Below are positions 26,842-44,988 of a stretch of DNA of 64,000 nt, piece by piece. The DNA lies in the IMG/VR virus record IMGVR_UViG_3300032116_012976, one strand, 5' to 3'. Numbering within the stretch: position 1 is the first letter of the stretch; each line of letters opens with the position of its first letter. Position numbers and translations under genes: made by a program. The notes under the pieces were generated by a model. The model saw nothing but the letters and a program-made list of their open reading frames with translations, was not told the origin of the DNA and did not search any database. The DNA is from a virus (Duplodnaviria > Heunggongvirae > Uroviricota > Caudoviricetes).

Positions 26842-27927
26842 TTAGGCTGATGCCTGCAAGATGTACTTGCCGTATTTGCTGTGGAACTCGTCAAAGTTCT
26901 TGAGCTTGGTGGGCAAGAACGGCAAGTCGTATGTGGTAAGTGCAATACGAGCACCCATCACAGTGAGCTCAGTCTCAAAGTTCTTCATCATGAAACCCAG
27001 GAAGTTATCCGCCATCTCATGGAACTTCTTGTCCTCAACCTTCTTCTCCACTGCATCCTTGAGCTCATAGCACATGGAGATAACCAGTGAGTACATGGCA
27101 CTGACCTCTTTCACGTTCAAGTCCTTGACCTTGCCTGCCAACACATCTGCAGGGTTGGGCATCTTGCTGGACACCTTGCGGTGGGCCATGAACTTAACTG
27201 CAAGACCTTCGCCCACAGTACCAGCAATCAAGTTGGTAAGGGTATCATTGTCTCCATCCTCGTCCTCCAACAGCTGGCTCACAAAGGTCCAGGTACGTGG
27301 AGTAGCAAAGGCACGGCTAGAACTCTTGGCATCAAAGTCGTACAAGTCCTGCTTGGCAAAACTCAAGTAACCCACCACGTCCTTGTGGATTTTGTTTTTA
27401 ACAGCCCAGTCTTGGTAGCTGGCAAAGTCCACTTTCATTTCCTGGTGCAGGAAACGGTTTGCAAGCGGAGTAGGCATGCGGTAGGTAACACCCTTGTCCG
27501 ACTCACGGTTACCTGCGGCAACCATCACAACGTTCTTGGGCAAGTGGTACTTGCCAATGCGTCGATTCAGAATCAACTGGTATGCGGCACTCTGCACTGA
27601 CGGAGCCGCAGAGTTGAGCTCGTCCAAGAACAGTACCACAATGGGATACTGGCTGGCAGTAGCCTCATCAGGCAATTCCACAGGAGGTGCCCAATCCATG
27701 ACACCTTTGTCTTTGTTGTAATAGGGAATGCCACGGATGTCTGTGGGCTCCATCTGACCCAAGCGGAGGTCAATCATGAGTCCGTCAAGTTCTTTAGTAA
27801 TGCCCTCAACCAGCTCTGACTTGCCGATGCCGGGAGGACCCCACAGGAACAACGGACGCTGAACTTTAAATGCTTTGAGCAGGCTTTTACGTGCCTGGAC
27901 GGAATTGACGGTGCGGGTATCTGACAT
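26842..27927 (-). CDS. MoxR/CobS-type AAA+ ATPase
   Basis: Walker A motif FLWGPPGIGKSELVEG. Length 361 aa. It is adjacent to the vWA partner, a typical pairing. RBS AAGGACACAGCCCATG. Promoter at 27962-27990. Confidence 0.7.
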   Translation of the reverse strand: MSDTRTVNSVQARKSLLKAFKVQRPLFLWGPPGIGKSELVEGITKELDGLMIDLRLGQMEPTDIRGIPYYNKDKGVMDWAPPVELPDEATASQYPIVVLFLDELNSAAPSVQSAAYQLILNRRIGKYHLPKNVVMVAAGNRESDKGVTYRMPTPLANRFLHQEMKVDFASYQDWAVKNKIHKDVVGYLSFAKQDLYDFDAKSSSRAFATPRTWTFVSQLLEDEDGDNDTLTNLIAGTVGEGLAVKFMAHRKVSSKMPNPADVLAGKVKDLNVKEVSAMYSLVISMCYELKDAVEKKVEDKKFHEMADNFLGFMMKNFETELTVMGARIALTTYDLPFLPTKLKNFDEFHSKYGKYILQASA

Positions 27928-28843: not shown

Positions 28844-29575
28844 TTACATTGGGATCAAATGCTCCAGCTCGCTTTGCCCATGCACATCAATGATAAAGTG
28901 CAGTCTTGGATGTGGGCTGTTATTTTTTACCCAGTGCTTTAGACCTGCGTTGAAAAAATAAACACGACCGTCTGCTGGTAGGTGCTGTTCTTGTATGCCT
29001 TGTTTGGTTAGCATAAACATACTGACGTCAGGGTGAGTCAGCACAGGAATGTGAAACCTTGTGACATAACTGGGGTCATAATCAAAGTGCGGTTTGATTT
29101 CGTGACCTGCTCCTAGGTATGCCAGTCTTGCTCTAGTAATTCGACTGGTAAACATGTCAAAAATCCGTTCAATCTCACCAGTCACCATGTTGGTGCGTAC
29201 TCCGTAGTTGAGATCGTCAGCTTCGGGCACATACCGAGGATCATTGGGATCCTGACGCTTGACTCGTTCTATCATGGTTGTGGCTTTAACTTCCACAGGC
29301 CCACGGCTTTTTGATTTGTCAAACTCAGTAAGTTGTATCTGTCTAAATTTTTCACTTTCCAAACTGGGTGCATCTGCTTCTTTAAACAAATTATCCAAGG
29401 TCCATTGGTTGGCTTTGATGAATGGAGTGAATGCACCATCAGTACTGGCCTTGACATCAACATAGTGATCCCAGTCTAGGAGACTGTTGTCTTTCAAGTG
29501 TTTGATCAATTGTGGTGTGTCTATGTGAAAATTGTTCAGATAGCCAAACGCTGGAAGTTGTTTTCGTGTTTTCAT
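28844..29575 (-). CDS. Fe(II)/2-oxoglutarate dioxygenase-like protein (PhyH-like)
   Basis: A HxD...H arrangement: HEIKPHFDYDP...GLKHWVKNNSPHPRLHF. Length 243 aa. Followed by a rho-independent terminator. Confidence 0.4.
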   Translation of the reverse strand: MKTRKQLPAFGYLNNFHIDTPQLIKHLKDNSLLDWDHYVDVKASTDGAFTPFIKANQWTLDNLFKEADAPSLESEKFRQIQLTEFDKSKSRGPVEVKATTMIERVKRQDPNDPRYVPEADDLNYGVRTNMVTGEIERIFDMFTSRITRARLAYLGAGHEIKPHFDYDPSYVTRFHIPVLTHPDVSMFMLTKQGIQEQHLPADGRVYFFNAGLKHWVKNNSPHPRLHFIIDVHGQSELEHLIPM

Positions 29576-30303
29576 TGTTTGACCAGTCTAATTAAATATC
29601 CAGCAACATCAATTTGCCACCACTTTAGTCCAAAGCGCCAGTCACTGGGATTGGCATGATGATTGTTGTGCCATCCTTCGCCCCACACAAGTACACCTAA
29701 AATAGGATTGTTAACACTGGTATCTTTGCCAGGATAATCTTGCCAGCCTATGGTGTGACCAATGTTGTTGATCAAACCGCCTGCATGGAATAAAAACAAA
29801 GCAGGCACCAAGTGAGCATAGACCACAGCCATTGGATCTATAGCATACAGTATCACAGCATACGCACCGTGTATGGCCCAATAGTAATTGTGCATGAATG
29901 CATGAAATCTACTGCGCATGAGATCAGTAACCATTCTAAGACTGGGCTGATTGAACATGATTAAAAATTGCACACGGAAGAATCCTTTGTGCAAGGGACT
30001 GTGGGGATCGCGTTCGGTATCCACAAATTTATGATGTTCACGATGTATGGCAACCCAAGCAATACTAGAGCCCACTCCACCGAGAGTGCCAATTATGGTG
30101 CCAAGGTATTCCCACCAAGCAGGTGCTTTATAACTTCTATGACTCAATAGTCTGTGAAAAGTTGCACTGGCACCAATACTGCCAGTTACAACGTATACGC
30201 CAAACGCTACGGCCCATTGCCACCATTCACCATTCACCATTAGGCACACCAAGGCAGCTATGCACATGGTTTGAAAAACAAACAACCAGTTTATGCGTTT
30301 CAT
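29572..30303 (-). CDS. membrane fatty-acid desaturase (delta9-like)
   Basis: Three histidine boxes: HRLLSHRSY, HREHHKF and HNNHHANP. The N-terminus is hydrophobic. Confidence 0.75.
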   Translation of the reverse strand: MKRINWLFVFQTMCIAALVCLMVNGEWWQWAVAFGVYVVTGSIGASATFHRLLSHRSYKAPAWWEYLGTIIGTLGGVGSSIAWVAIHREHHKFVDTERDPHSPLHKGFFRVQFLIMFNQPSLRMVTDLMRSRFHAFMHNYYWAIHGAYAVILYAIDPMAVVYAHLVPALFLFHAGGLINNIGHTIGWQDYPGKDTSVNNPILGVLVWGEGWHNNHHANPSDWRFGLKWWQIDVAGYLIRLVKQ

Positions 30304-31079
30304 GATCTTACTACCTCGCCATAGATTCTTCTAGTGTTGTTGCCACCAGCCAAAGAAACAATCTCTCCCGGTTCTACATCTCTAGTAACAGTGATTCGAG
30401 GATGTAGTTCAGCATTACTACCAATATTTGGTCCGCGCTCATTGTTAAATTTGCCGTACCCTACAATTGCAGTGTCAGGGTGAATTAACACATTGTCACC
30501 TAATGTTACTCTACTACAAATTTTTACAAATTCATGTAGGATGCAATTTTTTCCAATAGTGGTATGATGCGCAACAGTAGTAGAATTATGTATTCGGCTG
30601 TGAGCACCAATCTTTGTATAATGTGCTACTCCGGCGTTGAATCCAATATAGCACCCTGGGCCAATTTCTGCTTCGTCATACACCTCACTGGCTGGATGTA
30701 TCAGCGTTGCACAGTTGAGTTTATGTTGATCAATCAGATCAATATACGCAAGTCTTTTGGATTTCGATCTTAGATCAAGACTTGACCAAGACATTCCAAC
30801 AAAAAAATCATACTGGTCTCGAGCAGCCTCAAAATCAAACGAGTCTTCGCTTCCAATCACAGGCAATCCATTTTTAGTATCAGTGTTCCTGTAATAATCA
30901 CTGTCAACAATACCTGCAACGGGTATGTTACGAAGAGTACACACTCTTATAAAAATTTCTAAGTTTGTACTGGTGCCTAAAAAAACAATTGGTTTGTGCA
31001 TGCGATTATTTAAGTTAGTGTGCGAGCAAATAAATATTTCATATGAAAATCTCTCGCTCCTTGATCGACCCAGTGGCAC
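30300..31079 (-). CDS. NeuD/PglD-like hexapeptide-repeat sugar N-acetyltransferase
   Basis: N-terminal Rossmann-like IVFLGTST...AGIVDSD. A left-handed beta-helix repeat region IGPGCYIGFNAGVAHYTKIGAHSRIHNSTTVAHHTTIGKNCILH. Confidence 0.6.
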   Translation of the reverse strand: MPLGRSRSERFSYEIFICSHTNLNNRMHKPIVFLGTSTNLEIFIRVCTLRNIPVAGIVDSDYYRNTDTKNGLPVIGSEDSFDFEAARDQYDFFVGMSWSSLDLRSKSKRLAYIDLIDQHKLNCATLIHPASEVYDEAEIGPGCYIGFNAGVAHYTKIGAHSRIHNSTTVAHHTTIGKNCILHEFVKICSRVTLGDNVLIHPDTAIVGYGKFNNERGPNIGSNAELHPRITVTRDVEPGEIVSLAGGNNTRRIYGEVVRS

Positions 31080-31093
31080 TCAGTTCCGTTGGC

Positions 31094-31825
31094 ATGTTAT
31101 TTCCAATTTGGACAGTGATCTGGTTGACAATAAACTGGTCATGGACTACATTTTTTGTTGTGCTATTGACCAGTTGGTTTATGGGAATTCACATCACTAT
31201 GTTTGCGCATCGCGCCTGGTGTCATCGCGCCTGGAAACCTAGTTCAGTAGTTGATTTGTATGGACTTGTTGTATTTACCTTGTGCCTAGTAGGCAACAGC
31301 ATTGGATGGGTGGGAATTCATCGCGAACATCATGCACATTGTGACACTGACCGTGATCCACATTCTCCATATCATAAGAGTCGGTGGGCTATTCAATTTT
31401 TGAGCTATTTCAATCAAGTCAAAACCAAATACATTGTGGACCTTGGTAGAGATTCTCGCCATCTTTGGTTTTATCATTGGTACTGGGCCCTCAACATAGT
31501 TTGGTTTGCATTGTTATTTGCAATTGATCCTGCCCTGGTAGGATTATGGATAGCAGTAATTGGACTCACAGTGTTCAAACTTCACACAATCAATTCATTG
31601 TGTCATCGCACACCTTGGTTCTTGCTACCTATACACAATGATGACACCAGCAGTAACAGTGTGCTGATGGTGTTATTAAACATCAACAATGGCGAAGCTT
31701 GGCACAAGAACCATCATCAAAATGCAGCCAACTATAGATTCAGTCAACGCTGGTATGAAATTGACCCACCTGCCAGAATAATTGAACTACTGGCGCAATT
31801 CAAGCTGGCCAGTATCAATCGCTGA
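31094..31825 (+). CDS. membrane fatty-acid desaturase, second copy
   Basis: His boxes HRAWCHRAW, HREHHAH and HKNHHQN. The ORF track starts at 31043; the internal Met at 31094 avoids overlap with the divergent gene. Confidence 0.65.
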   Translation: MLFPIWTVIWLTINWSWTTFFVVLLTSWFMGIHITMFAHRAWCHRAWKPSSVVDLYGLVVFTLCLVGNSIGWVGIHREHHAHCDTDRDPHSPYHKSRWAIQFLSYFNQVKTKYIVDLGRDSRHLWFYHWYWALNIVWFALLFAIDPALVGLWIAVIGLTVFKLHTINSLCHRTPWFLLPIHNDDTSSNSVLMVLLNINNGEAWHKNHHQNAANYRFSQRWYEIDPPARIIELLAQFKLASINR

Positions 31826-32698
31826 CCCATCAAATGGGCTAACATAGCCCATGGCTCTCCACAACAGACGGTTTTCAATATTTTCAAATGCAGGACGAGC
31901 ATGCATGCTCAACCACTGGCAATTGATAATTATTTCATAGTCTTGCCAATGATGAGCGTACTGGTACTTGGGCTGAGTTAGAAATTTGTACAGATAACTG
32001 AACCATGCTTGTTGTCCAGCGTTTGGAACTGGTGTTTTGCCAATATAGAATATTGGATTTTGCATGGGTGACCAATGGATGCCCGTGGCCCCTGATTTGT
32101 TTTGAGTAACAAATTTGTTAAATCCTGTTCTGCCTTGATAGTTAACGTCTGCAGCCATAGGCCCGTTATCTGTACTGCCTGAGTAATTGTAATAACACAT
32201 GAGCTGATCCAGACTTCTTAATAGTCCAACTGGTGTATCGGTTGCTTGCCTAAGATCGTTTAATGCTTGTATGCTGTTGGTAAATCCTGTGATGCTGCCT
32301 TCAGTATGTTCTACCCCGTACAAACACAAAGCATCGGGACGTTCTGCGGCAGTTCTTCCTGGTTCGTTGCAGTGCCAAGGCAAATCATCTGGCATGCCAA
32401 ATAATCCAGTGATTTCACCGTGGACATCTTTCTTACCAGTGACTCTGATAATTTCTTTGTTGGTTTGTTCGACAAATATTTTTTCTTTGGCTGGAAGATC
32501 GTTATTGAGATCATCAAACACACCAGAAGTAAATTGATGATATTGATCAATGGTTAACGGTTGCGTGTTATGGATTACAACCAGCAAGTTGGTATAAGGT
32601 AGCGTTCTTAATTGATCGCGTTCGGTGCTGTTTACATCTAGCACGTTTAGTTGATCTACATGCACTACCCAGCCGTTTGGATCTAAAGTTAATTTCAT
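31787..32698 (-). CDS. TauD/TfdA-like dioxygenase-superfamily protein (tentative)
   Basis: Motif DLPWHCNEPG. Paralogous to 33739..34608 (KLTLDPNGWVVHVD / KIQLHENGWTSIITD). Metal ligands are not firmly assigned. Confidence 0.3.
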   Translation of the reverse strand: MKLTLDPNGWVVHVDQLNVLDVNSTERDQLRTLPYTNLLVVIHNTQPLTIDQYHQFTSGVFDDLNNDLPAKEKIFVEQTNKEIIRVTGKKDVHGEITGLFGMPDDLPWHCNEPGRTAAERPDALCLYGVEHTEGSITGFTNSIQALNDLRQATDTPVGLLRSLDQLMCYYNYSGSTDNGPMAADVNYQGRTGFNKFVTQNKSGATGIHWSPMQNPIFYIGKTPVPNAGQQAWFSYLYKFLTQPKYQYAHHWQDYEIIINCQWLSMHARPAFENIENRLLWRAMGYVSPFDGSAIDTGQLELRQ

Positions 32699-32817
32699 AA
32701 TTGTAATAAAATTACCGGTTACGACTCCGGTGCTGAACTATGGTGTCAGCCGTTCTGATCTGTACCCTATCACTTCACCATACTTTCACAAGCAGAGGGC
32801 TAGGCAGAAAGCCGCCT

Positions 32818-33438
32818 TTAATCTACATGATGCTCAGTTTTGAAATTGCCGTTTTGCAAGCCAATCCGTCCACCTTCTGCTTCAATGCGTTTGTACACAT
32901 CTTCCAACAAGATAGGCGCAAAATCAGTCTGCTCCACACATACGCAATGATACCGCACATCCAGTTCTGTGCCATACAAGATCTCTCCTGTACGGGCATC
33001 AACACCACGAGCTTTCTTAACTCGAGTGGCGTGCAAGTGTCCGTGGATGTTTACACCAAAGCGACCCAAGCTAGATTCATGCACAGGAATGTGACTCAAG
33101 ATCATTCCGTTCAACACATGATATGCTCGCAATTCACGAAAGTACCTGCGGTACTCATCATCACGGAAGATATCATGGTTGCCGCGGATCAATACCTTGT
33201 CGCCGTTCAAGCGATGTAACGTAGGCAATGCCTTGCGGTTAATAACCACGTCACCCAAATGGTAGACCTTGTCTGATGGACGAACACGGTCGTTCCAACG
33301 GCGGATCATTTCCTCATCCATCTCTGCAGGATCATCCCACGGACGCAATTTCACAGTGTCATCATCTGGGTGTGTAAACTTGCACACGCCAACATGACCA
33401 AAATGCGTGTCGCTTACCAAAAATGTTGCTGGCATCAT
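32818..33438 (-). CDS. calcineurin-like metallophosphoesterase
   Basis: Motifs GDVV...GNHD. Length 206 aa. Confidence 0.6.
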   Translation of the reverse strand: MMPATFLVSDTHFGHVGVCKFTHPDDDTVKLRPWDDPAEMDEEMIRRWNDRVRPSDKVYHLGDVVINRKALPTLHRLNGDKVLIRGNHDIFRDDEYRRYFRELRAYHVLNGMILSHIPVHESSLGRFGVNIHGHLHATRVKKARGVDARTGEILYGTELDVRYHCVCVEQTDFAPILLEDVYKRIEAEGGRIGLQNGNFKTEHHVD

Positions 33439-33449
33439 GTGCCTCCTTT

Positions 33450-33683
33450 TTATTCTACTACTTTACAATAACGGCACTGAAATGCAAATGCTAATTTTTG
33501 ATGAGTTTTTCTCTCACCATTGTCTTGCCATTCGTATTCAATCCAGTCACCGTCTACTGTGACAATTTTGACTTCGCGGTTACTGCCGTCGGCAGGTGCC
33601 CAGCGTTGACCGCTTGCAAGCTCGTCGGCCGGGAAGAAGTGGCCACAAACAAGGTTGCGACCGTTTACAGTTTCAATTCTCAT
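33450..33683 (-). CDS. hypothetical protein
   Basis: A 77-aa ORF with a promoter at 33710-33738. Confidence 0.35.
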   Translation of the reverse strand: MRIETVNGRNLVCGHFFPADELASGQRWAPADGSNREVKIVTVDGDWIEYEWQDNGERKTHQKLAFAFQCRYCKVVE

Positions 33684-33709
33684 TTTGCACTCCTTTCTGT
33701 TAATGTGTA

Positions 33710-33738
33710 ATTATAGCAGATCAGGAATTTTTGGTCAA
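33710..33738 (-). promoter_or_regulatory. sigma70-like promoter TTGACC-N17-TGCTATAAT
   Basis: The minus strand reads TTGACCaaaaattcctgatctgcTATAAT. Confidence 0.6.
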
Positions 33739-34608
33739 TCACACTAAAGTATTAGAAATGTTGCAGTGATCAAAGTTAAGAGCAATGCGATGCACCACTC
33801 GATTCTGAATGTTTTCACAGCGCCATCTTTTGTGAATACTTAACCATTGTTCACTTAACACAATGTCACCGTCTTGCCAATCGTGGTGATATGTGTATTT
33901 TTCTTGCTCCACATGTTGTCGTAATTTTTGAATTAGGGCATCGCTTTTGTCTTTGTCAAAACCCAGTATCTGATGAATTTGTAAAAACGAAAAAAACATG
34001 CCTGTGACACCAGCCTGGTTGGTGTGTAACAAACTTGGATACCAATTGTGGTTGATGGCATTTGAATCTCGACTGGTGATTGTGTAAGTGTCTTCAGAGA
34101 TCACCCTAGCATCAAACCCCATGACCAGTTTTAAATCTTTGATTTGTTCTTTGAGTTCTTGGTCAAGATCTTGATAACTCAAAATGTTGTTGATCCAACT
34201 GGTTCGGCTGCCAACAGAATCTTTTACTGAATACAACCAAATCAACGGATCTCGGTCTTCACTACCGGTTCTATTGCAGTGCCAATCTAGATCACTCACA
34301 TGTTCAAACACACCTGGTTGTCCATGATGGTGACCACCGCCACCTACTCTGACAATTTTACCACGCCCGCCTTGTACTAATTTTGTGCCCGGTGTTGGCG
34401 TATTAGCCGGCGCCACTTGCTCACATGCACCAATTTTTTCACAGATGTCAACTTCGTCTCCGGGCAAAAGGTGTTGATCGCGTATCACAACCACGGTGTC
34501 TTTGGCAGCAAGCCAAGCAATGGTATTCATCTCTTGCTGTGAAGCAGAACGTAAATCAATATCAGTAATGATTGAAGTCCAACCATTTTCGTGTAGTTGT
34601 ATTTTCAT
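33739..34608 (-). CDS. TauD/TfdA-like dioxygenase-superfamily protein, paralog (tentative)
   Basis: Motif DLDWHCNRTG. Paralog of 31787..32698. Confidence 0.3.
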   Translation of the reverse strand: MKIQLHENGWTSIITDIDLRSASQQEMNTIAWLAAKDTVVVIRDQHLLPGDEVDICEKIGACEQVAPANTPTPGTKLVQGGRGKIVRVGGGGHHHGQPGVFEHVSDLDWHCNRTGSEDRDPLIWLYSVKDSVGSRTSWINNILSYQDLDQELKEQIKDLKLVMGFDARVISEDTYTITSRDSNAINHNWYPSLLHTNQAGVTGMFFSFLQIHQILGFDKDKSDALIQKLRQHVEQEKYTYHHDWQDGDIVLSEQWLSIHKRWRCENIQNRVVHRIALNFDHCNISNTLV

Positions 34609-35030
34609 GTGTCTAATTGCACTTCTTGCCAGGTCGAGTCGCCGAGCATTTTAACTGCCATCACGTAGGTGTGCTGTTCTCCAGGGCCAGCGCACCAGTG
34701 ATGCGGATGATTCATACTCAACCAATGCTCGTTTTTTATTGAGTTAAAATACACATAGTAAGTTTTACCATGTCGAGGTTGTAAGCCGTACTTGACGCCG
34801 TGCATGATCTCACTAACATGCAGGCGTTGTTGAAGTGCGTCGGCCTGTTGTTTTAACACTTCAACTTGTTGCATGATCCTGTCATATTCTTGTTGAGCAT
34901 GCATTCGCCCTACATTGAGTATGACATCTTTTTCTCGTTCAACAGGAACAGGGGCAAACGCAGGACTGCCCAACTCCATTGGGTAAGGCAGACTGTTTCT
35001 TCTATCTCCGTCTTCTTTAGATAGATCCAT
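34605..35030 (-). CDS. hypothetical protein
   Basis: A 141-aa ORF with a 4-bp overlap. Confidence 0.3.
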   Translation of the reverse strand: MDLSKEDGDRRNSLPYPMELGSPAFAPVPVEREKDVILNVGRMHAQQEYDRIMQQVEVLKQQADALQQRLHVSEIMHGVKYGLQPRHGKTYYVYFNSIKNEHWLSMNHPHHWCAGPGEQHTYVMAVKMLGDSTWQEVQLDT

Positions 35031-35286
35031 TGGTTCTACGTCTACGTCGGGGTTCTAAATCTTGTTCGCGATAGAGATAGTCTCTTGTGATTTTGCCTTG
35101 TTCAATTTCTTCAAGTACTGCCACTGAGTTGCTGTTTTTACTTGCAACTTTTCGCATGTCGCCGCGATTGAGTTCGCGCAATCGTCGAGAAGCCACTAGC
35201 ACCAAGTCATAGCGATTGCCAATTGCGGCTACTGCGGCTTCGCTGGTCAACCCGGCTGTTCTGTCGTTACTGTGAATAATTTTCAT
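35017..35286 (-). CDS. rpoZ: DNA-directed RNA polymerase omega-subunit-like protein
   Basis: The segment EAAVAAIGNRYDLVLVASRRLRELN...VAVLEEIEQGKI aligns with the conserved core of bacterial RpoZ (IGNRFDLVLVAARRARQ...ALREIEEG). Confidence 0.5.
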   Translation of the reverse strand: MKIIHSNDRTAGLTSEAAVAAIGNRYDLVLVASRRLRELNRGDMRKVASKNSNSVAVLEEIEQGKITRDYLYREQDLEPRRRRRTNGSI

Positions 35287-35572
35287 TGTTGTTTCCGTTT
35301 GAGTGATGGTGGTTGAGGGAATCTAAATCTTGAAATAGTTTTTTCTCTTGGGCTGTAAGTTTGTCTTTATGTGTCTTACGTGGATTGCCACACAAGTAAC
35401 ATGCAGGATTGCCGCAGTCCATGGCATGATGTTTGGCCAGGCGATGTGTTTGCCTAATGCTTCGTAAGTTGTAGGTGCTATGACTTTTGGCAATTTTGAC
35501 TTGTCTAGCAATTGCAACATCTGTTTTATGACGGCGAGCTGAGTTTTTGAATTTAGCAAAGTCGTTAGCCAT
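35267..35572 (-). CDS. hypothetical basic protein with CxxC...CxxC zinc-ribbon-like motif
   Basis: Motif CGNPACYLCGNP. Length 101 aa. Confidence 0.3.
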   Translation of the reverse strand: MANDFAKFKNSARRHKTDVAIARQVKIAKSHSTYNLRSIRQTHRLAKHHAMDCGNPACYLCGNPRKTHKDKLTAQEKKLFQDLDSLNHHHSNGNNNENYSQ

Positions 35573-35760
35573 CAGCCACCTCTTCCGCTGGCTTTTCTAA
35601 CAGGTGCTCCTTTGATCATTGGTGCGCCGTAGTTTTGTTTGGTCTTGGTAGTTTTGGTTTTTACTGTGGGTCGAGCAGCCTCATGCTTTTTGGCAAGAGC
35701 CTCTCGCACAGCGTCAGTGAGTTTGGAAGATTTTGGATCGTTCATATAACTATTTAACAA
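35572..35760 (-). CDS. hypothetical small basic protein
   Basis: A 62-aa lysine-rich ORF. Confidence 0.3.
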   Translation of the reverse strand: MLNSYMNDPKSSKLTDAVREALAKKHEAARPTVKTKTTKTKQNYGAPMIKGAPVRKASGRGG

Positions 35761-35797
35761 TGTAGAACCAGTATAACACAGTTCTACATTGTTGTCA
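35755..35797. repeat. 13-bp perfect inverted repeat (hairpin) downstream of rubredoxin
   Basis: aacaatgtagaac...gttctacattgtt. Confidence 0.45.
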
Positions 35798-35799
35798 AG

Positions 35800-35928
35800 T
35801 TACATTGCCTGGAATTCTTCCTTACCGCAACCACACTCTGGACAGTTATAGTATTTTGGCAAATCGTCAAATTTACCATCTGTCTCTTCATTGTGGACAT
35901 GGCCACATACAGTGCATACGTATTCCAT
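35800..35928 (-). CDS. rubredoxin-like protein
   Basis: Motif MEYVCTVCGHV...CPECGCG (CxxCG...CPxCG). It has its own RBS GGAGA 6 nt upstream of the ATG at 35928. The ORF track gives a longer N-extended form. Confidence 0.6.
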   Translation of the reverse strand: MEYVCTVCGHVHNEETDGKFDDLPKYYNCPECGCGKEEFQAM

Positions 35929-35938
35929 TTCCGTCTCC

Positions 35939-36376
35939 TTATTGTGCTTCTTTGTGAGCAGCCAGGGCTTTGGTGAAACGATTGGCATGTGAGCGTTCGG
36001 CTTTGGCCAGTGTTTCAAACCAGTCAGCAATCTCGTCTAAGCCTTCGTCTCTGGCAGTTTTGGCCATGCCAGGATACATGTCAGTGTATTCATGTGTTTC
36101 GCCATGAATAGCACTTTCCAGAGCCTGCTCAACAGATTTGGCACTCATGCCAGTGGCGGGATCTCCAGCACCACCTTCGATCAAGTATTCCATATGACCG
36201 TGTGCATGTCCAGTTTCGCCTTCGGCAGTTGAACGGAACAAGGCAGCAACGTCATTGTCGCCTGCTACGTCGGCCATGTTTGCGAAATACAAGTATCGAC
36301 GATTGGCTTGCGATTCTCCGGCAAATGCCGCCTTCAAGTTTTCTTCGGTACGGGTACCTTTTACAGATTGTGTCAT
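35939..36376 (-). CDS. rubrerythrin (ferritin-like diiron domain only)
   Basis: Diiron E..H motifs: [13 protein letters not shown] and [18 protein letters not shown] promoter lies upstream at about 36401-36430. Confidence 0.65.
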
Positions 36377-36478: not shown

Positions 36479-36553
36479 TGGCCGGCCCTGAGAGGATCGA
36501 ACTCCCACCGCTTGTTTCGAAGACAAGCATGATATCCATTTCACCAAGGGCCG
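36479..36553 (-). tRNA. tRNA-Arg(TCG)
   Basis: A hand-folded cloverleaf. T-arm GGGAGTTCGATCCTCTC. Anticodon loop CTTCGAA. CCA is encoded. Confidence 0.65.
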
Positions 36554-36636
36554 AGAATTGGTGCTCCCAACTGGTAACGATCCAGTGTTTCTACATTACC
36601 AATGTAGTGTAATGCCTTTATACTATGAGAGCTAAG

Positions 36637-36710
36637 TGGAGCAGGATACCAGAATCGAACTGGTGACTGGACCTTGGCAAGGTTCTATTTTACCCCTAAA
36701 CTAATCCTGC
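36637..36710 (-). tRNA. tRNA-Gly(GCC)
   Basis: T-arm CCAGTTCGATTCTGG. Anticodon loop TTGCCAA. CCA is encoded. Confidence 0.6.
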
Positions 36711-36723
36711 ATTCCGTTACTTA

Positions 36724-37200
36724 TTAGGCAGCTCGTAAACTCTTAAATCTATCTGCCGCGTATGATGCTGCAAATGCTTCTGGCTTCACAAACGGAATCA
36801 CATTGCATGTTCCTTTGATGTAGCCCACAGCTTGCGAGATCACACAACTTGAACCGTATTGTTCGTCTGGGTTGATGTCCAAGTGAACTTCAACTTGACG
36901 GCCTTCTAGTACGTCAGCCAGTTTCAAATACAGTTCTGAAACCTTGTACACTTCGGTCATCAAACGCATGGCAGGTTTGCCTGGTTTCACGTCCCACACA
37001 CGCTCGCGTTGAACTTCGCCAAACAGTTTGCAGCCGTTGTTGCCGTTGATGTGTACCACAATGGCCAACACATAGTCGGCATACCAGGTACCGTCAATTT
37101 TGATTCGTTCAGAGTCGCAGCCAAGGTAGATGCGAGTTTCGGGCGTTTGTTTCTGGATAAATTCTGCTACTGATGCTATATCGAGCTTTTTCATTTTCAA
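36724..37200 (-). CDS. hypothetical protein (possibly RNase H-like / DUF458-like)
   Basis: A 158-aa ORF. There is only a weak family impression from ...VHLDINPDEQYG.... Confidence 0.3.
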   Translation of the reverse strand: MKMKKLDIASVAEFIQKQTPETRIYLGCDSERIKIDGTWYADYVLAIVVHINGNNGCKLFGEVQRERVWDVKPGKPAMRLMTEVYKVSELYLKLADVLEGRQVEVHLDINPDEQYGSSCVISQAVGYIKGTCNVIPFVKPEAFAASYAADRFKSLRAA

Positions 37201-37223
37201 CTTTCAAAAATATTTATTGATAG

Positions 37224-37300
37224 TGGTACCCCAGGAGGGATTCGAACCCTCAGAATTCTCCTTTTGAGAGAGACACGTATTCCAGTTCCGTCACCGGGGC
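37224..37300 (-). tRNA. tRNA with anticodon CAA (Leu) on a class-I scaffold
   Basis: T-arm GAGGGTTCGAATCCCTC. By position counting, the anticodon loop is CTCAAAA. The variable region is short. Confidence 0.5.
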
Positions 37301-37305
37301 ATTTG

Positions 37306-37342
37306 CAAAAAAAAAAACAGTAGGACTGGCCTACTGTTTTTA
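37306..37342. terminator. bidirectional rho-independent terminator
   Basis: The A11 run, the 8-bp stem acagtagg/cctactgt and the T5 run. Confidence 0.55.
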
Positions 37343-37371
37343 TAACTTGTGTCAGACAATCTGATCATGCG

Positions 37372-37707
37372 TTATTCTGTATAATCTTCTACAGTAAATG
37401 ACACAGGAACAACACTAAAAGTTGAAAGTTGTGCAGTCATCCATTCAACAAAGTCTTCTGCATTTTTTTTGTTTTCCCATTTTCGAGTTACAGTTAAATG
37501 GGTGGGACCTAGTTCTGACGGGTCGAGACCTGCGGTACCAACCACAGTAAAGTCATCATGCCCACCGTCTCCAACAATTTGTAAATAATTACTCCAAGGG
37601 ATAATAGTTCTTGCTGTTTCTCGATCTTCTACAGACGCATACACCAACACAGTTTTAGCAACTATAGCCATAATAATCTCCTTTTTGTATTTATTGCTTT
37701 GCGGCAA
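37372..37707 (-). CDS. hypothetical protein
   Basis: A 111-aa ORF followed by a bidirectional terminator. Confidence 0.3.
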   Translation of the reverse strand: MPQSNKYKKEIIMAIVAKTVLVYASVEDRETARTIIPWSNYLQIVGDGGHDDFTVVGTAGLDPSELGPTHLTVTRKWENKKNAEDFVEWMTAQLSTFSVVPVSFTVEDYTE

Positions 37708-38464
37708 TCACGCTTAAATGCCAACCTAGCTGTTGATTGACAGCCTGGCGTTGTGCATCGCTCATGGCAGCAAACCATGGTTCCAACACATAATTTCCTT
37801 GTTTGTACTGCTCTACATTGTACATAAAACAGTAATCTTGCTTGATGCTTTTGATATCAAAGTGTACGTCCAGCAGTTTTTGTATTTCTCCTTGACTGTA
37901 AACTCTGGCATATGGGCAGTTGTCTTGCGCTTCAAACTGGTCCAGCCCAGACTGAATCATTGCCCATTTCCAACTGTTGCGAGCATACACTAGGAAACGA
38001 AACTCCCCATCAGATGCTAGACTTGCGTAAGCATTGCTGACCACTTGTTCTACATTGGGATAGTGATGCAATACACCACAAGCATACACCATATCAAATT
38101 GTCCTAGCCCTGCAACACGCTGACTGTCGCCTGCGTCCATGTGATAGAATTCAGCATCTAATCCCATAACAGTAAATCTCTGCTCACAAAGTTCTATGCT
38201 ACGACTGCTAAGATCAATCCCAACGTATTCAGCACCATGCCGTACAAATTGTTCAGCATCAGATCCAATGCCGCATCCTAGTTCTAGCACCCGCCGTCCC
38301 TTGCAGTTTTCAAAGTCGGCCAACTGCCACAAATGCGGCCCAACAAACCATCTACGACGATTGATGTTGTTCCAAAATTCTTCTGTGCCTTCTGGTGCCA
38401 ACCCATGCTTTATATTACAAGGTTGTTGATCCCAGTACTGTTCTATTTGAGTAATTGTAGCCAT
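37691..38464 (-). CDS. class I SAM-dependent methyltransferase
   Basis: Motif I RVLELGCGIGSD. Length 257 aa. Confidence 0.6.
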   Translation of the reverse strand: MATITQIEQYWDQQPCNIKHGLAPEGTEEFWNNINRRRWFVGPHLWQLADFENCKGRRVLELGCGIGSDAEQFVRHGAEYVGIDLSSRSIELCEQRFTVMGLDAEFYHMDAGDSQRVAGLGQFDMVYACGVLHHYPNVEQVVSNAYASLASDGEFRFLVYARNSWKWAMIQSGLDQFEAQDNCPYARVYSQGEIQKLLDVHFDIKSIKQDYCFMYNVEQYKQGNYVLEPWFAAMSDAQRQAVNQQLGWHLSVIAAKQ

Positions 38465-38502
38465 ACAGTGTATTTAAAAGTCTGTGCAAGCTACATTAAA
38501 TT

Positions 38503-38579
38503 TGGTGCCCCAGAGGAGACTCGAACTCCTAAAATTTGGCTTCTAAGACCAACACGTATACCAATTCCGTCACCGGGGC
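38503..38579 (-). tRNA. tRNA with anticodon TAG (Leu) on a class-I scaffold
   Basis: The acceptor/D-arm GCCCCGGTGACGGAA.TGG.ATACGTG is nearly identical to that of the tRNA at 37224. Anticodon loop CTTAGAA. Confidence 0.5.
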
Positions 38580-38795
38580 TTAAATACATCATGCAAACCA
38601 AACAAGACTCCATCAAAAAAATAGAGCGTTTGCTTGCAATGGAAACATTGGGCAAAACGTTTGTGACCAAACAACAACAGTTGGCCTACGAGCGCGGATA
38701 TCTAACAGGCTTGCTGGCTGCTATGGCCTACAACGACAATTCAGTCGAGCATGTGGTGAATCAACGCATCAAACATCTTACACCTAAAATCTAAC

Positions 38796-38871
<76 letters not shown>

Positions 38872-38876
38872 ATGAA

Positions 38877-38951
38877 TGGTGGGTGATGAGAGGATCGAAC
38901 TCCCGACAAACTGCGTGTAAGGCAGCGACTCTACCGCTGAGCTAATCACCC
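38877..38951 (-). tRNA. tRNA-Val(TAC)
   Basis: Anticodon loop CTTACAC. T-arm GGGAGTTCGATCCTC. Confidence 0.65.
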
Positions 38952-38956
38952 GTATA

Positions 38957-39047
38957 TGGTGGAAGTGGTGAGATTCGAACTCACGGACCCCTTTCGGAGC
39001 CGGCAGTTTTCAAGACTGCTGCAATCAACCAACTCTGCCACACTTCC
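38957..39047 (-). tRNA. tRNA-Ser(TGA)
   Basis: A long variable arm. Anticodon loop CTTGAAA. T-arm GTGAGTTCGAATCTCAC. Confidence 0.65.
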
Positions 39048-39240
39048 TAAAAAATTAAAAAAGATACTGCTTTGCGTTTAAAGGTACTGAACATCCTTTC
39101 GGGTAGCTCACATCCTTCCTGGCACATGGTTCGACTGTGACTAGCAGTCTGGAACTTAATCCCAGCGGCACCTGGATAACGTTAAGGTCCCTAGCAGTTG
39201 GGCCCATAGTCAATGAGTTTTTCACACATCTTTTCTAAAC

Positions 39241-39316
39241 TTGGAGTAGGTGACAGGACTCGAACCTGCATTATACGGATTTGCAATCCGGCGCCTAGCC
39301 ATTCGGCACACACCTA
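39241..39316 (-). tRNA. tRNA-Cys(GCA)
   Basis: Anticodon loop TTGCAAA. T-arm GCAGGTTCGAGTCCTGT. Confidence 0.55.
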
Positions 39317-39322
39317 CATCTA

Positions 39323-39399
39323 TTGGTCGGAGTACGAGGGTTCGAACCTCGGACCTCCTGGTCCCAAACCAGGCGCACTACCAGGCTGTGCTATACTCC
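39323..39399 (-). tRNA. tRNA-Pro(TGG)
   Basis: Anticodon stem CCTGG/CCAGG. Anticodon loop TTTGGGA. Confidence 0.65.
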
Positions 39400-39406
39400 G
39401 TGTATT

Positions 39407-39625
39407 TTATTTTACTTTGGGTTCTTGACTTTTGTCAAGTTCATGGGGTTCAGCAAATCTTGTGCCGTGGCCCAGATTCCAACTGTCTGCTGTGAAAATT
39501 TTTACAGGCTTCCAGTAACGACTTATGATGTTGTTGACAGCAACAGCCGCCGCCACAATCACTACAAATCCTATTGCTGTCAAAATACTACCAGCTAAGA
39601 ATACAGCCGCTTGATCCATGTCCAT
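39407..39625 (-). CDS. small hydrophobic (membrane) protein embedded in the tRNA array
   Basis: A 72-aa ORF with the hydrophobic core AVFLAGSILTAIGFVVIVAAAVAV. RBS AAGGAAC 7 nt upstream of the ATG. Confidence 0.35.
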   Translation of the reverse strand: MDMDQAAVFLAGSILTAIGFVVIVAAAVAVNNIISRYWKPVKIFTADSWNLGHGTRFAEPHELDKSQEPKVK

Positions 39626-39638
39626 TGTTTGTTCCTTG

Positions 39639-39712
39639 TGGAGCAGGGTAGGGGAATCGAACCCCTCGCTTTAGCTTGGAAGGCTAAGGTATTACCACTA
39701 TACGAACCCTGC
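39639..39712 (-). tRNA. tRNA-Gly(TCC)
   Basis: Anticodon loop CTTCCAA. T-arm GGGGTTCGATTCCCC. Confidence 0.65.
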
Positions 39713-39760
39713 GTTAAAATACTTATTATACAACACTCAGACACTGTTGTAAAGATCATT

Positions 39761-39835
39761 TGGTTGCCATGGACAGTTTCGAAATGTCGACCTATCGCTT
39801 ATCAAGCGATTGCTCTTCCTCTGAGCTACACGGCA
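39761..39835 (-). tRNA. tRNA-Ile(GAT)
   Basis: Anticodon loop TTGATAA. D-arm GCTCAGAGGAAGAGC. The T-arm is aberrant/palindromic (GACATTTCGAAACTGTC). Confidence 0.55.
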
Positions 39836-39841
39836 AAAACT

Positions 39842-39915
39842 TGGCACGGGTACTAGGGCTCGAACCTAGAATGACAGAGTCAAAGTCTGTAGTGTTACCA
39901 TTACACTATACCCGA
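39842..39915 (-). tRNA. tRNA-Gln(TTG)
   Basis: Anticodon loop CTTTGAC. A T1:T72 mismatch at the top of the acceptor stem. Confidence 0.55.
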
Positions 39916-39925
39916 ACAAAAACTA

Positions 39926-40002
39926 TTTGGTGGATGTAAGTAGAGTCGAACTACCACTTGACTCCGTATGAAGGAGGCGCACTACCATTATGCTATACAT
40001 CC
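39926..40002 (-). tRNA. tRNA with anticodon CAT (Met or Ile2)
   Basis: Anticodon loop TTCATAC. T-arm GTAGTTCGACTCTAC. Confidence 0.6.
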
Positions 40003-40006
40003 ATGT

Positions 40007-40098
40007 TGGTACCCCCACCGGGAGTCGAACCCAGATGAACCAATTATCTGTTGCTTACGGGATATAAATCCGCCGTTTTACCATTAAACTATAGGGGC
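40007..40098 (-). tRNA. class-II-like tRNA (92 nt), anticodon unresolved (candidate UAU)
   Basis: The acceptor, D-arm (TAGTTTAATGGTAAAAC) and T-arm (CTGGGTTCGACTCCCGG) are clear. There is a 25-nt variable arm. The anticodon arm GCGGA-TTTATAT-CCCGT folds imperfectly. Confidence 0.4.
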
Positions 40099-40103
40099 AT
40101 GTC

Positions 40104-40188
40104 TGGGGTGTCGTATGAGAATCGAACTCATGACAGCGGAATCACAACCCGCGGTTTTGCCACTAAACTAACGTCACCATATAGGAAC
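40104..40188 (-). tRNA. tRNA-His(GTG) with encoded G-1
   Basis: Anticodon loop TTGTGAT. An extra 5' G pairs with C73, which is the bacterial His identity element. Confidence 0.65.
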
Positions 40189-40266
40189 ACACTCAGGCGT
40201 AGTAGTTCGTTAGCCCACTAAGATACACGGCTACCACCCGTGTCATTAGTTGAATGTGTTTTTATA

Positions 40267-40341
40267 TGGTAGGGGCGCCGGGATTCGAACCCGAAATTGG
40301 CAGATTAAAAGTCTGCTGTGATACCGTTTCACCACACCCCC
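40267..40341 (-). tRNA. tRNA-Lys(TTT)
   Basis: Anticodon loop CTTTTAA. T-arm TCGGGTTCGAATCCCGG. Confidence 0.65.
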
Positions 40342-40402
40342 GGTATCTTGTCACTCTTGTCACTATTCATGACAGACTCTCCTTTTTAAAATAAGTATTT
40401 GA

Positions 40403-41527
40403 ATGAACAAATATTGTCCAAAACCATTTGTTAGTATTCATATGTATACTGATAAAGATCTCAATCCAACTGTTAGGCCTTGTTGCAATTACAAACCTAT
40501 CAAGCAGTACGCAACGATTAATGATTATTTGCAATCATCTGAACTAGCGTCTCTTCAGCAACATTTGCTTACAAAAGAATCATTGCCAGATGGATGCAAG
40601 GCATGCAAAGTAGACGAAGATAATAACTTGCCTAGTATCCGAAACAAGTATATTAAAGTGTTTGAGCATGAAACCAAAACTAAAATTGTTGACTTGGAAA
40701 TTTTCCCTGGCAACGCATGTAATCTCAGTTGCTTGTCGTGCAATCCTTCTCATAGTACCAAATCAGGTCAGGAATATGCCAAACTTGGATGGATTAAACA
40801 ATCAATAGTGATCAATCACGAAGATCATGCACTTGAAGTTATTAAACAGTTGCCAGACCTTAAATCAATAGGTTTTATTGGCGGCGAATTTTTTGTAACC
40901 AAACACAATATTGAATTGCTCGATGCGGTTATTGAAAAAAATCTTAAAACACGAATTATTACCAATGCCACTCAACTAACCAAAAAACATCTTGAGCGGT
41001 TACAAAAAATATCTGACCTTGATGTGATGGTTAGTGTAGACGGTACTGGGCCAACATTTGAATTTTTACGCTATCCGGCACAATGGTCAGTTGTGCAATC
41101 AAACATTGTTGCACTACAACAGGCATTGCCCGGAGCAAAGATACATTTGTCGGCAGTGTTGCAATTTTTAAATTTGCAAAATATCATTGAACTGTTTGAA
41201 TACGCCAATGTCCGTCGACTGCCATTTAATGTGATCCCTTTATCTTATCCTGTTTGGCTACAGTCAGAAGTGCTTACCACTCTCGAACGTCAGCAGTTGA
41301 TTGCAGTTATACAAAAACAACTAACAGTTGCAAAACTTACCAAAACACAAAAACAGTTAATGACTGATACATGTAGTATGCTAGAAACAATACAGCACTC
41401 ACCTGCTCAACGAGAACAGTTTGTGTCTCGAACAAGCCAGCTGATTCGACTGCGCAACATCACACAACACACAATCAACTCAGTGTTTGGTGTGCTAGAA
41501 AATTTAGCGCAAGAAGTTATACAATAG
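40403..41527 (+). CDS. radical SAM enzyme, paralog 6 (inside the tRNA array)
   Basis: Motif GNACNLSCLSCNP (CxxxCxxC). N-terminal Cys cluster C..CC...CKACK. Motif FIGGEFFV. Block GPTFEFLRYPAQW. Confidence 0.65.
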   Translation: MNKYCPKPFVSIHMYTDKDLNPTVRPCCNYKPIKQYATINDYLQSSELASLQQHLLTKESLPDGCKACKVDEDNNLPSIRNKYIKVFEHETKTKIVDLEIFPGNACNLSCLSCNPSHSTKSGQEYAKLGWIKQSIVINHEDHALEVIKQLPDLKSIGFIGGEFFVTKHNIELLDAVIEKNLKTRIITNATQLTKKHLERLQKISDLDVMVSVDGTGPTFEFLRYPAQWSVVQSNIVALQQALPGAKIHLSAVLQFLNLQNIIELFEYANVRRLPFNVIPLSYPVWLQSEVLTTLERQQLIAVIQKQLTVAKLTKTQKQLMTDTCSMLETIQHSPAQREQFVSRTSQLIRLRNITQHTINSVFGVLENLAQEVIQ

Positions 41528-41567
41528 CCAGGGACCTAACTCGTCAAGGGAGAGTATGGCTATGTGT

Positions 41568-41645
41568 TGGTACCACCTGAGAGATTCGAACTCCCCGCCC
41601 CTGCGTTCGTAGCACAGTGCTCTAATCCAAATGAGCTAAGGTGGT
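41568..41645 (-). tRNA. tRNA-Arg(ACG)
   Basis: Anticodon loop CTACGAA. D-arm GCTCATTTGGATTAGAGC. Confidence 0.6.
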
Positions 41646-41856
41646 GTATTGAATTTGAGAGTAGTAGCATCACTGTTATTGCTACCATTGACCCGTGTAA
41701 TAAAGCCGGCCGGGAGGGTGATACGTCACTTGGAATACTTAACACACAGATTGATTACTTAGTTGTGTACGGAATCACGCCGCCCGTGCTTTACACTAGG
41801 TTGACCTTCGAAGAATCTTCCTAGCGTGTCTTTCTCTTGCTGACACTCTCAAAACT

Positions 41857-41930
41857 TGGTGCCCCACGACAGAATCGAACTGCCATCACAGGATTACAAA
41901 ACCAGTGTACTACCATTGTACTAGTAGGGC
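41857..41930 (-). tRNA. tRNA with anticodon TGT (Thr); the anticodon stem carries two mismatches
   Basis: Position counting from both ends gives the loop TTTGTAA. The stem CTGGT/TCCTG has T:T mismatches. Confidence 0.45.
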
Positions 41931-41936
41931 GAATTG

Positions 41937-42026
41937 TGGTGGAAGACTAGGGAGTCGAACCCTATGACCCTATTACTAGAATCTACAGATTAGCAATCTG
42001 CTGCATTACCGTCCTGCCCGTCTTCC
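41937..42026 (-). tRNA. tRNA-Ser(GCT)
   Basis: A long variable arm. Anticodon loop TTGCTAA. Confidence 0.6.
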
Positions 42027-42031
42027 TGACT

Positions 42032-42107
42032 TGGCTCCCCAGCGTGGGATCGAACCACGGACACCTTGATTAACAGTCAAGTGCAACTACCGCTGTGCTA
42101 CTAGGGA
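42032..42107 (-). tRNA. tRNA-Asn(GTT)
   Basis: Anticodon stem CTTGA/TCAAG. Anticodon loop CTGTTAA. Confidence 0.65.
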
Positions 42108-42147
42108 ATAATCTACTTAGTAGGCACTCGAGCCTACTACAAAAATA

Positions 42148-42240
42148 TGGTGGAGCAACTTGGAGTCGAACCAAGAATGTTTACCACGAGGGGACGGATT
42201 TACAGTCCGCCGATGCACACGCCATAGCATCAATTGCTCC
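42148..42240 (-). tRNA. tRNA-Tyr(GTA), class II
   Basis: A long variable arm. Anticodon loop CTGTAAA. Confidence 0.6.
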
Positions 42241-42245
42241 ATATT

Positions 42246-42320
42246 TGGTGGACCGGCGGGGGATCGAACCCCGACTAAAGGCTTGCAAAGCCCCTGTGCT
42301 CCCATTATCACTACCAGCCC
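42246..42320 (-). tRNA. tRNA-Ala(TGC)
   Basis: Anticodon loop TTTGCAA. The G3:U70 Ala identity pair is present. Confidence 0.65.
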
Positions 42321-42326
42321 AAATTT

Positions 42327-42400
42327 TGGCATCCCGGGAGGGACTCGAACCCCCACGAACGGTTTTGGAGACCGTCATGCTGCCATTACACCACCGAGAC
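42327..42400 (-). tRNA. tRNA-Trp(CCA)
   Basis: Anticodon stem ACGGT/ACCGT. Anticodon loop CTCCAAA. Confidence 0.65.
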
Positions 42401-42574
42401 ATAATTTTAACACACTCTTGCGAATGTGTGTATTAAAACATTCTAAACTACTTAGGCTGCCTGTTTGTAAAGAATGTTTTAATACGCTCGGATTTTTTTA
42501 TGTACAAGAACATAAGCCATCCCCGAGGCCGCCCATTTGTAGTTTAGAGTGATACAGGCTCGCGTTGCCGTTGC

Positions 42575-44986: not shown

Positions 44987-44988
44987 AT

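Follow-up and report, generated by a model that had tools for sequence, protein, structure and literature searches.

The phage proteins AsiA, Alc and RpbA of T4, Gp2 of T7 and P7 of Xp10, together with the TraR-like proteins, are small proteins that bind and reprogram the RNA polymerase (RNAP) of the host. To our knowledge, in all known cases phages take over RNAP by means of foreign proteins that bind it, by modifying it covalently, through a sigma factor or with a polymerase apart from it, and none swaps a core subunit for a viral paralog; phiKZ-type phage RNAPs, so far as we are aware, lack omega and alpha. Large eukaryotic viruses encode their own RPB6-type subunit together with a whole polymerase. 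Here we describe a homolog of the bacterial RNAP subunit omega (RpoZ) encoded in a 64,000-nucleotide stretch of viral DNA (IMG/VR record IMGVR_UViG_3300032116_012976, hereafter 'the window'), which, judged from its sequence, looks like part of a ~360-kb uncultivated jumbo phage. Our preferred reading, held with moderate confidence, is that this phage omega is a virus-adapted paralog that replaces host omega on the beta' subunit, or competes with it there, and so retunes host RNAP. Its presumed purpose would be that of the T4, T7, Xp10 and TraR-like proteins, which are likewise early small proteins altering host RNAP, but those are not homologs of RNAP subunits, whereas the phage omega would act by subunit replacement.

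The open reading frame (ORF) in question, at 35017-35286 on the minus strand, begins with ATG and encodes 89 aa (MKIIHSNDRTAGLTSEAAVAAIGNRYDLVLVASRRLRELNRGDMRKVASKNSNSVAVLEEIEQGKITRDYLYREQDLEPRRRRRTNGSI); the longest competing ORF on the opposite strand is at most 41 aa. It contains both RpoZ core motifs, AIGNRYDLVLVASRRLREL and VLEEIEQGKI, that a first-pass annotation made from the letters of the window had quoted in proposing an RpoZ homolog. PF01192 (RNA_pol_Rpb6) matches the ORF with 41.4 bits (E=1.4e-10, gathering score 26) over profile positions 5-52 of 53, and the NCBIfam rpoZ model TIGR00690 matches with 34.4 bits (cut-off 23.6); for the narrower equivalog NF001579 it falls under the cut-off (22.7 vs 58). 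A phmmer search of PDB aligned residues 12-74 with the omega subunits of Vibrio cholerae (E=4.3e-10) and E. coli (E=4e-8). An AlphaFold2 (AF2) model built from 40 relatives (mean pLDDT 79.3, pTM 0.67) places helices at residues 15-22, 25-41, 53-62 and 68-72, and the top 50 Foldseek matches of this model in PDB are, without exception, omega chains of RNAP structures (target-normalised TM 0.65-0.78), superposition on E. coli or Vibrio omega giving an rmsd of 1.4-1.9 A over ~62 residues with 44-46% identity. The similarity, well above chance level, neither lacks a profile match nor is confined to a short low-complexity segment, and the earlier assignment of the 89 aa ORF to RpoZ stands: by every sequence and fold test for the omega/RPB6 family that was applied, it is a genuine omega homolog. 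The protein shares its Pfam family with RPB6/RpoK-type subunits of eukaryotes, archaea and large DNA viruses, but is specifically of the bacterial omega type; and while large eukaryotic viruses encode a whole polymerase, no viral beta/beta' was seen in the phage DNA examined.

Likeness to the bacterial omega of E. coli and V. cholerae extends from the profile match and overall identity to the four-helix arrangement and the IGNR[FY]DLVLVA-RR-R and EIE-G core. When 147 unique relatives are aligned with E. coli omega, the core positions of the latter (I13 G14 N15 R16 F/Y17 D18 L19 V20 L21 V22 A23, R25 R26 R28, G33, E53 I54 E55 G57, L64) are kept and mostly invariant; those that define omega (E. 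coli G14 N15 R16 F17, L19-A23, R25 R26 R28, E53 I54 E55 G57) are all present in the window protein and are invariant or at least 90% conserved among the 147. Because the whole beta'-binding helical core is kept, phage omega most likely docks on host beta', and it would then be a physical subunit of RNAP.

At both ends and in one loop the phage protein departs from bacterial omega. Where E. coli omega begins M1-A2-R3-V4-T5, phage omega has T10-A11-G12-L13-T14 after a variable leader, so that glycine takes the place of Arg3; this G12 is invariant in the 147 relatives and stands in a strongly conserved T-A-G-L-T-S-E motif. The N-terminal extension, 7-17 residues long in the phage version, comprises residues 1-10 in the window omega, and 8-17 residues precede the glycine in 38 unique sequences of this Gly-type. 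In E. coli, omega residues 2-5 help coordinate the phosphates of guanosine tetraphosphate (ppGpp) at site 1 of RNAP (PMC7676912). The N-terminus that goes with site 1, A-R-V/I-T directly after Met1, is absent from the window omega, which has A11-G12-L13-T14 after 10 residues. Following helix 2, the QMQVGG of E. coli gives way to a loop E-L-x-R-G-D, in which E38, L39 and G42 never vary and D43 hardly does. The tail of bacterial omega is ~25 residues long, acidic and disordered, whereas that of phage omega is short and basic (E78-P-R-R-R-R-R84), P79-R-R-R being nearly invariant in the window clade; TAGLTSE and EPRRR are thus conserved motifs outside the beta'-binding core. The ratio of nonsynonymous to synonymous substitution rates (dN/dS), calculated after removal of one outlier (L064, an artefact of a 3-residue fragment), ranges between 0.05 and 0.25 in close pairs and has a median of 0.33 over 140 pairs, which indicates that the gene is under purifying selection. 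The first-pass annotation had described an omega homolog; the homology holds, but it had not seen that this is a modified omega with changed N- and C-termini and a partner gene, described below.

The gene belongs to a large viral family. A word-indexed search returned 206 relatives with up to 99% identity, all with PF01192, and the identical protein occurs in 191 blocks of a public collection, on contigs of up to 204 kb among those read, with cluster mates on contigs of 361-364 kb. Scanning 1.84 billion protein cluster representatives with HMMER gave 176 clusters at E<=1e-3. When the best 150 are ranked, the first canonical cellular-type omega (defined by a 'MARVTV[EQ]D' start and an acidic tail) appears only at rank 69, while the viral 'TS[EQ]' signature is present in at least 77 of the 150, with a median tail charge of +2 compared with -3 for the canonical type. 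A pattern scan of IMG/VR produced at least 596 matches, and tblastn confirms at least 555 viral loci, the best 80 of which have 44-68% identity to the window omega; related IMG/VR contigs that carry omega are 320-367 kb long. The family comprises dozens of clusters at 50% identity and two N-terminal types. A phage omega had been thought unusual in the first-pass annotation, a view that gives way to these counts, since the gene is no oddity of one phage.

Automatic annotation at JGI already names these proteins omega. PHROGs contains no omega family, and tblastn of the INPHARED collection found no genuine omega in a cultured phage: its eight matches were rejected as either bacterial chromosome filed as phage or unannotated E. 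coli-type copies. The 'Acinetobacter phage MD-2021a' records (CAKLQH020000003.1 and CAKLQF020000004.1, locus L001) are 240-kb contigs with chromosomal genes (pil genes, ispH, gmk-rpoZ-spoT, bfr) and are apparently bacterial DNA; Campylobacter phages A11a and A18a, ECO95 1-6-1 and S.Kent 1-2-1 are unannotated records with an E. coli-type rpoZ. Broad comparative papers on jumbo or huge phages, a 2026 review and full-text searching yielded no mention of a phage omega, nor is omega mentioned in the description of the Moraphages (PMC12619734).

The size of this family bears on whether the gene could be a mere passenger, that is, a captured host rpoZ without a role in infection. Its surroundings do consist of auxiliary genes (rubrerythrin, TauD, desaturase) that vary from one relative to the next, but the idea is contradicted by family size, conservation and specific invariant residues (hundreds of divergent viral copies at 44-99% identity, purifying selection, residues invariant in this family in particular), and we strongly disfavour it as scarcely credible. 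The low rank of the first cellular-type omega in the cluster scan also speaks against it. A search of 185,579 species genomes (GTDB) turned up no close cellular donor, and the best matches there are Planctomycetota omegas with 36-46% identity; this is weak evidence because the search depends on exact peptide words.

Phage omega lies within a chain of overlapping genes preceded by a promoter, as follows.

35770..35798, minus strand: sigma70-type promoter TTGACA-17-(TG)TATACT, 11/12 consensus with extended -10 TG, directly upstream of the small ORF-p101-omega operon
35572..35760, minus strand: small ORF, first of the operon, 62 aa from TTG (57 aa from ATG at 35745 in metagenome annotations), kept mainly in close relatives
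35267..35572, minus strand: p101, a basic protein of 101 aa; last 20 nt shared with the beginning of omega
35017..35286, minus strand: phage omega (RpoZ-like), 89 aa, identified by PF01192, TIGR00690, PDB matches, AF2, Foldseek, family conservation and dN/dS
34605..35030, minus strand: DUF2452 protein, 141 aa; first 14 nt shared with the end of omega; not kept beside omega in more distant relatives
33739..34608, minus strand: TauD-family Fe(II)/2-oxoglutarate dioxygenase, last of the overlapping chain

Transcription of the operon is predicted to start near 35762. We assign the DUF2452 gene to the omega operon because of its overlap with the omega stop; the next sigma70-like promoter lies at 33738-33710, beyond the end of TauD. 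The gmk-rpoZ-spoT context of bacteria (seen in L001), which is a feature of context and does not define omega, is absent from the window, where the order is rubrerythrin, rubredoxin, small ORF, p101, omega, DUF2452, TauD. A further difference from bacterial omega is that the phage gene is coupled to that of p101, a Cys/His protein.

p101 is encoded directly upstream of omega, on the same strand, in 59 of 90 phage loci, and its presence follows the omega N-terminus. Among 52 unique omegas from viral loci, 38 are of the Gly-type (extension plus glycine, as in the window) and 14 of an Arg-type with arginine at the R3 position, 9 of which start MARITSE, MSRLSSE or similar while in 5 the start is called, probably in error, at a Met further upstream. 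p101 adjoins 33 of the 38 Gly-type omegas and none of the 14 Arg-type (Fisher p=6.6e-9). The MAR-type viral omegas, from IMG/VR jumbo-phage contigs (e.g. L075-L077, L084, L005), belong to the same viral radiation, being 55-63% identical to the window omega and sharing with it TS[EQ] for TV[EQ]D, REL-RG, G-x-EYL-K and basic tails, but they start as cellular omega does, keep Arg3 and lack both extension and adjacent p101. Adjacency of p101 and omega persists down to ~50% omega identity while other neighbours have changed; these vary by lineage, AdoHcyase for example standing in place of DUF2452 and TauD.

The p101 family (2680 proteins) is more widespread than omega, so p101 also occurs without an adjoining omega. 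It is also more conserved, with 81% identity compared with 64% for omega between the two lineages first compared, and has a median dN/dS of 0.16. Its invariant motif HRLAKHHAMDCGNPxCYLCGNPRKTHKD, probably a Zn knuckle, contains the invariant block H43 R44 L45, K47, H49, M51 D52 C53 G54 N55, C58, L60 C61 G62 N63 P64 R65 K66 T67 H68 K69. No relatives were found in Pfam (36 members scanned), PDB or PHROG, and the AF2 model (pLDDT 54) is too poor for a fold search. The CxxCGNP motif and the succession of helix, Zn knuckle and helix had suggested a secondary-channel factor of the TraR/DksA kind, a candidate we rejected: hhalign gave TraR a probability of 17% over 10 residues (CxxCGNP only) and DksA 0.5%, and Pfam gave no match.

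Such tight synteny and translational coupling (the 20-nt overlap), limited to omegas with the Gly-type N-terminus, would fit an omega that sits on host RNAP in the normal way and serves as an adaptor, its N-terminal extension or Arg-rich tail recruiting p101, another phage regulator or nucleic acid. Conservation of TAGLTSE and EPRRR outside the beta'-binding core is consistent with this, and GafA of RcGTA (PMC9638019) and activation by omega fusions (PMC7700224) are precedents for regulators that act through omega. Against recruitment of p101 stands its lack of detectable homology to any RNAP-binding factor, in hhalign comparison with TraR and DksA as in Pfam and PDB, and the poor model offers no help; moreover, an adaptor role overlaps with omega substitution rather than excluding it. 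As an explanation in its own right we consider it unlikely.

Promoter content was assessed across the window. Sites that match the sigma70 consensus in at least 11 of 12 positions number 14, compared with 2.0 +/- 1.5 (maximum 6) in dinucleotide shuffles, which bears out an earlier remark that the phage makes heavy use of host-type sigma70 promoters. All 14 are on the minus, coding strand between 25052 and 55240, three of them perfect (47625, 49539, 54879); none occurs on the plus strand or outside 25-55 kb of the window. When the threshold is lowered to 9 of 12 positions, promoter-like sites hardly exceed the shuffles, so that only the near-consensus tier is strongly enriched. This enrichment suggests that the 25-55 kb region is most likely read by the host sigma70 holoenzyme. 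The related phage PA5oct is reportedly dependent on host RNAP.

Reliance on sigma70-type promoters also weighs on the proposal that phage omega is a poison or decoy, binding the host RNAP core more tightly than host omega does and impairing it, with shut-off of host transcription rather than retuning as the result. Dominant-lethal E. coli omega mutants, which bind alpha2-beta-beta' more tightly and make RNAP initiation-defective (reviewed in PMC7700224), are a precedent, in that an omega variant whose binding core is intact can displace the wild-type subunit in competition and alter RNAP; phage omega likewise keeps the binding core and has altered termini, and a sigma70 promoter probably drives its expression early. 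The phage itself, however, appears to use sigma70-type promoters over at least 30 kb, including its tRNA array, and would suffer along with the host from a general RNAP poison. In addition, phage omega does not have the lethal substitution N60D (T or G stands at the aligned position), and the E. coli variants are laboratory point or silent mutants whose substitutions are not found in phage omega. We accordingly give poisoning only a small probability.

A different possibility is that omega serves a phage-encoded multisubunit RNAP whose viral beta and beta' lie elsewhere in the ~360-kb genome; large eukaryotic DNA viruses offer a parallel, with RPB6 homologs in polymerases of their own. Some jumbo phages do encode multisubunit RNAPs of their own (PMC12619734), and about a fifth of the genome was examined. 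The NADFDGD motif of beta' is nevertheless absent from every frame of 1.38 Mb (the window and 106 loci, covering part of the phage genome), strong sigma70 promoters are present, and the nearest cultured relatives are PA5oct-like phages, PA5oct being reportedly dependent on host RNAP; the lack of omega in phiKZ-type phage RNAPs also speaks against it; with 44-46% identity to gammaproteobacterial omega and a near-identical predicted fold, phage omega looks matched to a cellular beta'. We regard an own polymerase as very unlikely.

Omega substitution, the reading we prefer, would proceed as follows. Host RNAP would express phage omega early from the near-consensus sigma70 promoter, within the translationally coupled operon of small ORF, p101, omega, DUF2452 and TauD. 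The product would dock on host beta' in place of host omega, or in competition with it, to yield a phage-modified RNAP core, the regulation of which would be altered by the phage-specific parts that face outward or toward regulators. Control through ppGpp site 1 would probably be lost or altered, because the omega N-terminus is buried behind the extension and the Arg3 equivalent is an invariant glycine; the acidic disordered tail would be exchanged for the short Arg-rich one; and the co-inherited p101 is a candidate partner.

Several points weigh against this scheme and temper our confidence. Binding of phage omega to beta' is deduced from its sequence and a single-chain prediction. The predicted effect on ppGpp presumes a host whose omega has the MAR N-terminus and whose RNAP makes use of site 1. 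In E. coli the effect of site 1 is modest relative to site 2 (DksA) and deletion of rpoZ is mild (PMC7676912), so it is hard to see what selective advantage the phage would draw from dispensing with site 1. Many viral omegas keep a MAR-like start, and loss of site 1 therefore cannot be the general purpose of phage omega. The DNA seen amounts to 64 kb plus flanks of a ~360-kb genome, and a phage RNAP may lie elsewhere in it. Finally, the p101-omega association could, at least in part, be inherited synteny within the Gly-type clade and not a sign of functional coupling.

The replicon that carries the operon has other features of a jumbo phage. The 5 kb around the omega gene have no nucleotide match among ~50,700 phage records. 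A FEN/RNaseH-type exonuclease (61878-62912) has its best matches in the jumbo phages PA5oct, XaC1, XbC2, Kaldavass and CBB (~45-47% identity), and for a MoxR ATPase (26842-27927, minus strand) the identity is 49.7% with PA5oct-like phages, 45.5% with Phosso and 37.7% with Atu_ph07. An array of 30 tRNA genes for most amino acids occupies 36479-49077 on the minus strand. Within it lie a full-length GOLLD RNA (42994-43458, minus strand; RF02032, 204 bits with a gathering score of 150, model positions 1-416 of 416) and a permuted two-piece tmRNA (47603-48132, minus strand) with tag ANDEKFLMAA, which matches RF04321 tmRNA_permuted with 115 bits and alpha_tmRNA with 57.4 bits (gathering 50) and may give a hint to the host lineage. 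Together with the IMG/VR contigs of relatives, these matches and RNA genes agree with the phage origin assumed in the first-pass annotation. Virion structural genes (capsid, portal, terminase, tail) were found neither in the scanned ORFs of the window nor within 10 kb beyond either end, where only metabolic and 7-deazaguanine genes were seen, so that the phage identity rests on homology and the IMG/VR classification.

Some details of these features are recorded here. In the tRNA array, tRNA-Ile(tat) at 40007-40098 is 92 nt, unusually long for Ile, with a possible intron or mis-assigned identity, and a tRNA-like match at 43325-43395 within GOLLD is found by Rfam only and is not called by ARAGORN. 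A perfect sigma70 promoter, TTGACA-18-TATAAT at 47625-47596, overlaps the ARAGORN 3' end of the tmRNA just downstream of the Rfam tmRNA matches, and close to the 5' end of the tmRNA there is an 11/12 match at 48128-48100. The MoxR-type AAA ATPase pairs with a DUF2201/VWA-like protein at 25106-26470 (phrog_1314, E=5e-107), also on the minus strand; taken by itself, the ATPase has matches in 851 phage records, and L007, a distant relative, likewise carries both genes close to omega.

Immediately before the omega operon, 35800-36376 on the minus strand encodes a rubrerythrin (145 aa) and rubredoxin pair served by a sigma70-like promoter of its own (36430-36401); several distant viral loci, e.g. 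L058 and L092-L099, also have the pair close to omega. On the other side, 28844-34608 (minus strand) holds a run of oxygen-dependent enzymes, namely TauD-family dioxygenases (33739-34608 and 31787-32698), a fatty-acid desaturase (29572-30303) and an Asp/Arg beta-hydroxylase (28844-29575), together with a hexapeptide-repeat transferase (30300-31079) and a metallophosphatase (32818-33438). At the start of the window, 587-11037 on the plus strand contains radical-SAM/SPASM proteins (3027-4286, 4283-5500, 6490-7779) and proteins of no assigned family, followed by a GDSL lipase-like/DUF6071 protein and a NodU/CmcH-type carbamoyltransferase (9547-11037); AMP-binding and TctC proteins (L103) continue this cluster beyond the start of the window, and it has the look of a pathway for biosynthesis or modification. 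A 1199-aa ORF at 15789-19388 (plus strand) has no Pfam or PHROG match, and only its C-terminal 220 residues show a resemblance, at 29.6% identity, to a hypothetical protein of Ralstonia jumbo phage RsoM2USA. Near the other end, the minus strand at 60460-60849 encodes a PRA-PH (PF01503) pyrophosphohydrolase, of a MazG-related family, and just past position 64000 (L105/L106 1-9500) are GTP cyclohydrolase I, PTPS/QueD, Vut_1 (queuosine-precursor transporter family), a B12-binding radical SAM protein and a HIT protein, a 7-deazaguanine-type pathway that may serve to modify DNA or tRNA.

What the locus presents is a known subunit family in a viral guise not described before, with its own signature and partner gene, although the homology itself was already in automatic annotation. 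Carried by hundreds of related phages, omega looks like a common, so far undescribed route by which these viruses modify the transcription enzyme of their hosts. In a bolder form of the idea, to which we attach little credence, phage omega and p101 would act together as a two-protein module, taking the place of host omega and remodelling the ppGpp site 1 between beta' and omega, thereby making the hijacked RNAP blind to the stringent response. Were that so, phage promoters of the stable-RNA type (the 30-tRNA array, tmRNA and GOLLD, with consensus sigma70 sites) would stay fully active in starved, ppGpp-rich freshwater hosts, and this would be the first bacterial virus to reprogram RNAP by swapping a core subunit. 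The viral omegas are in any case a natural, diversified set of variants, which makes testable the roles of omega beyond assembly, the weight of ppGpp site 1 and the function of the tail, and the combination of omega and p101 could be used to recognise this abundant lineage of uncultivated jumbo phages, which probably live in lakes.

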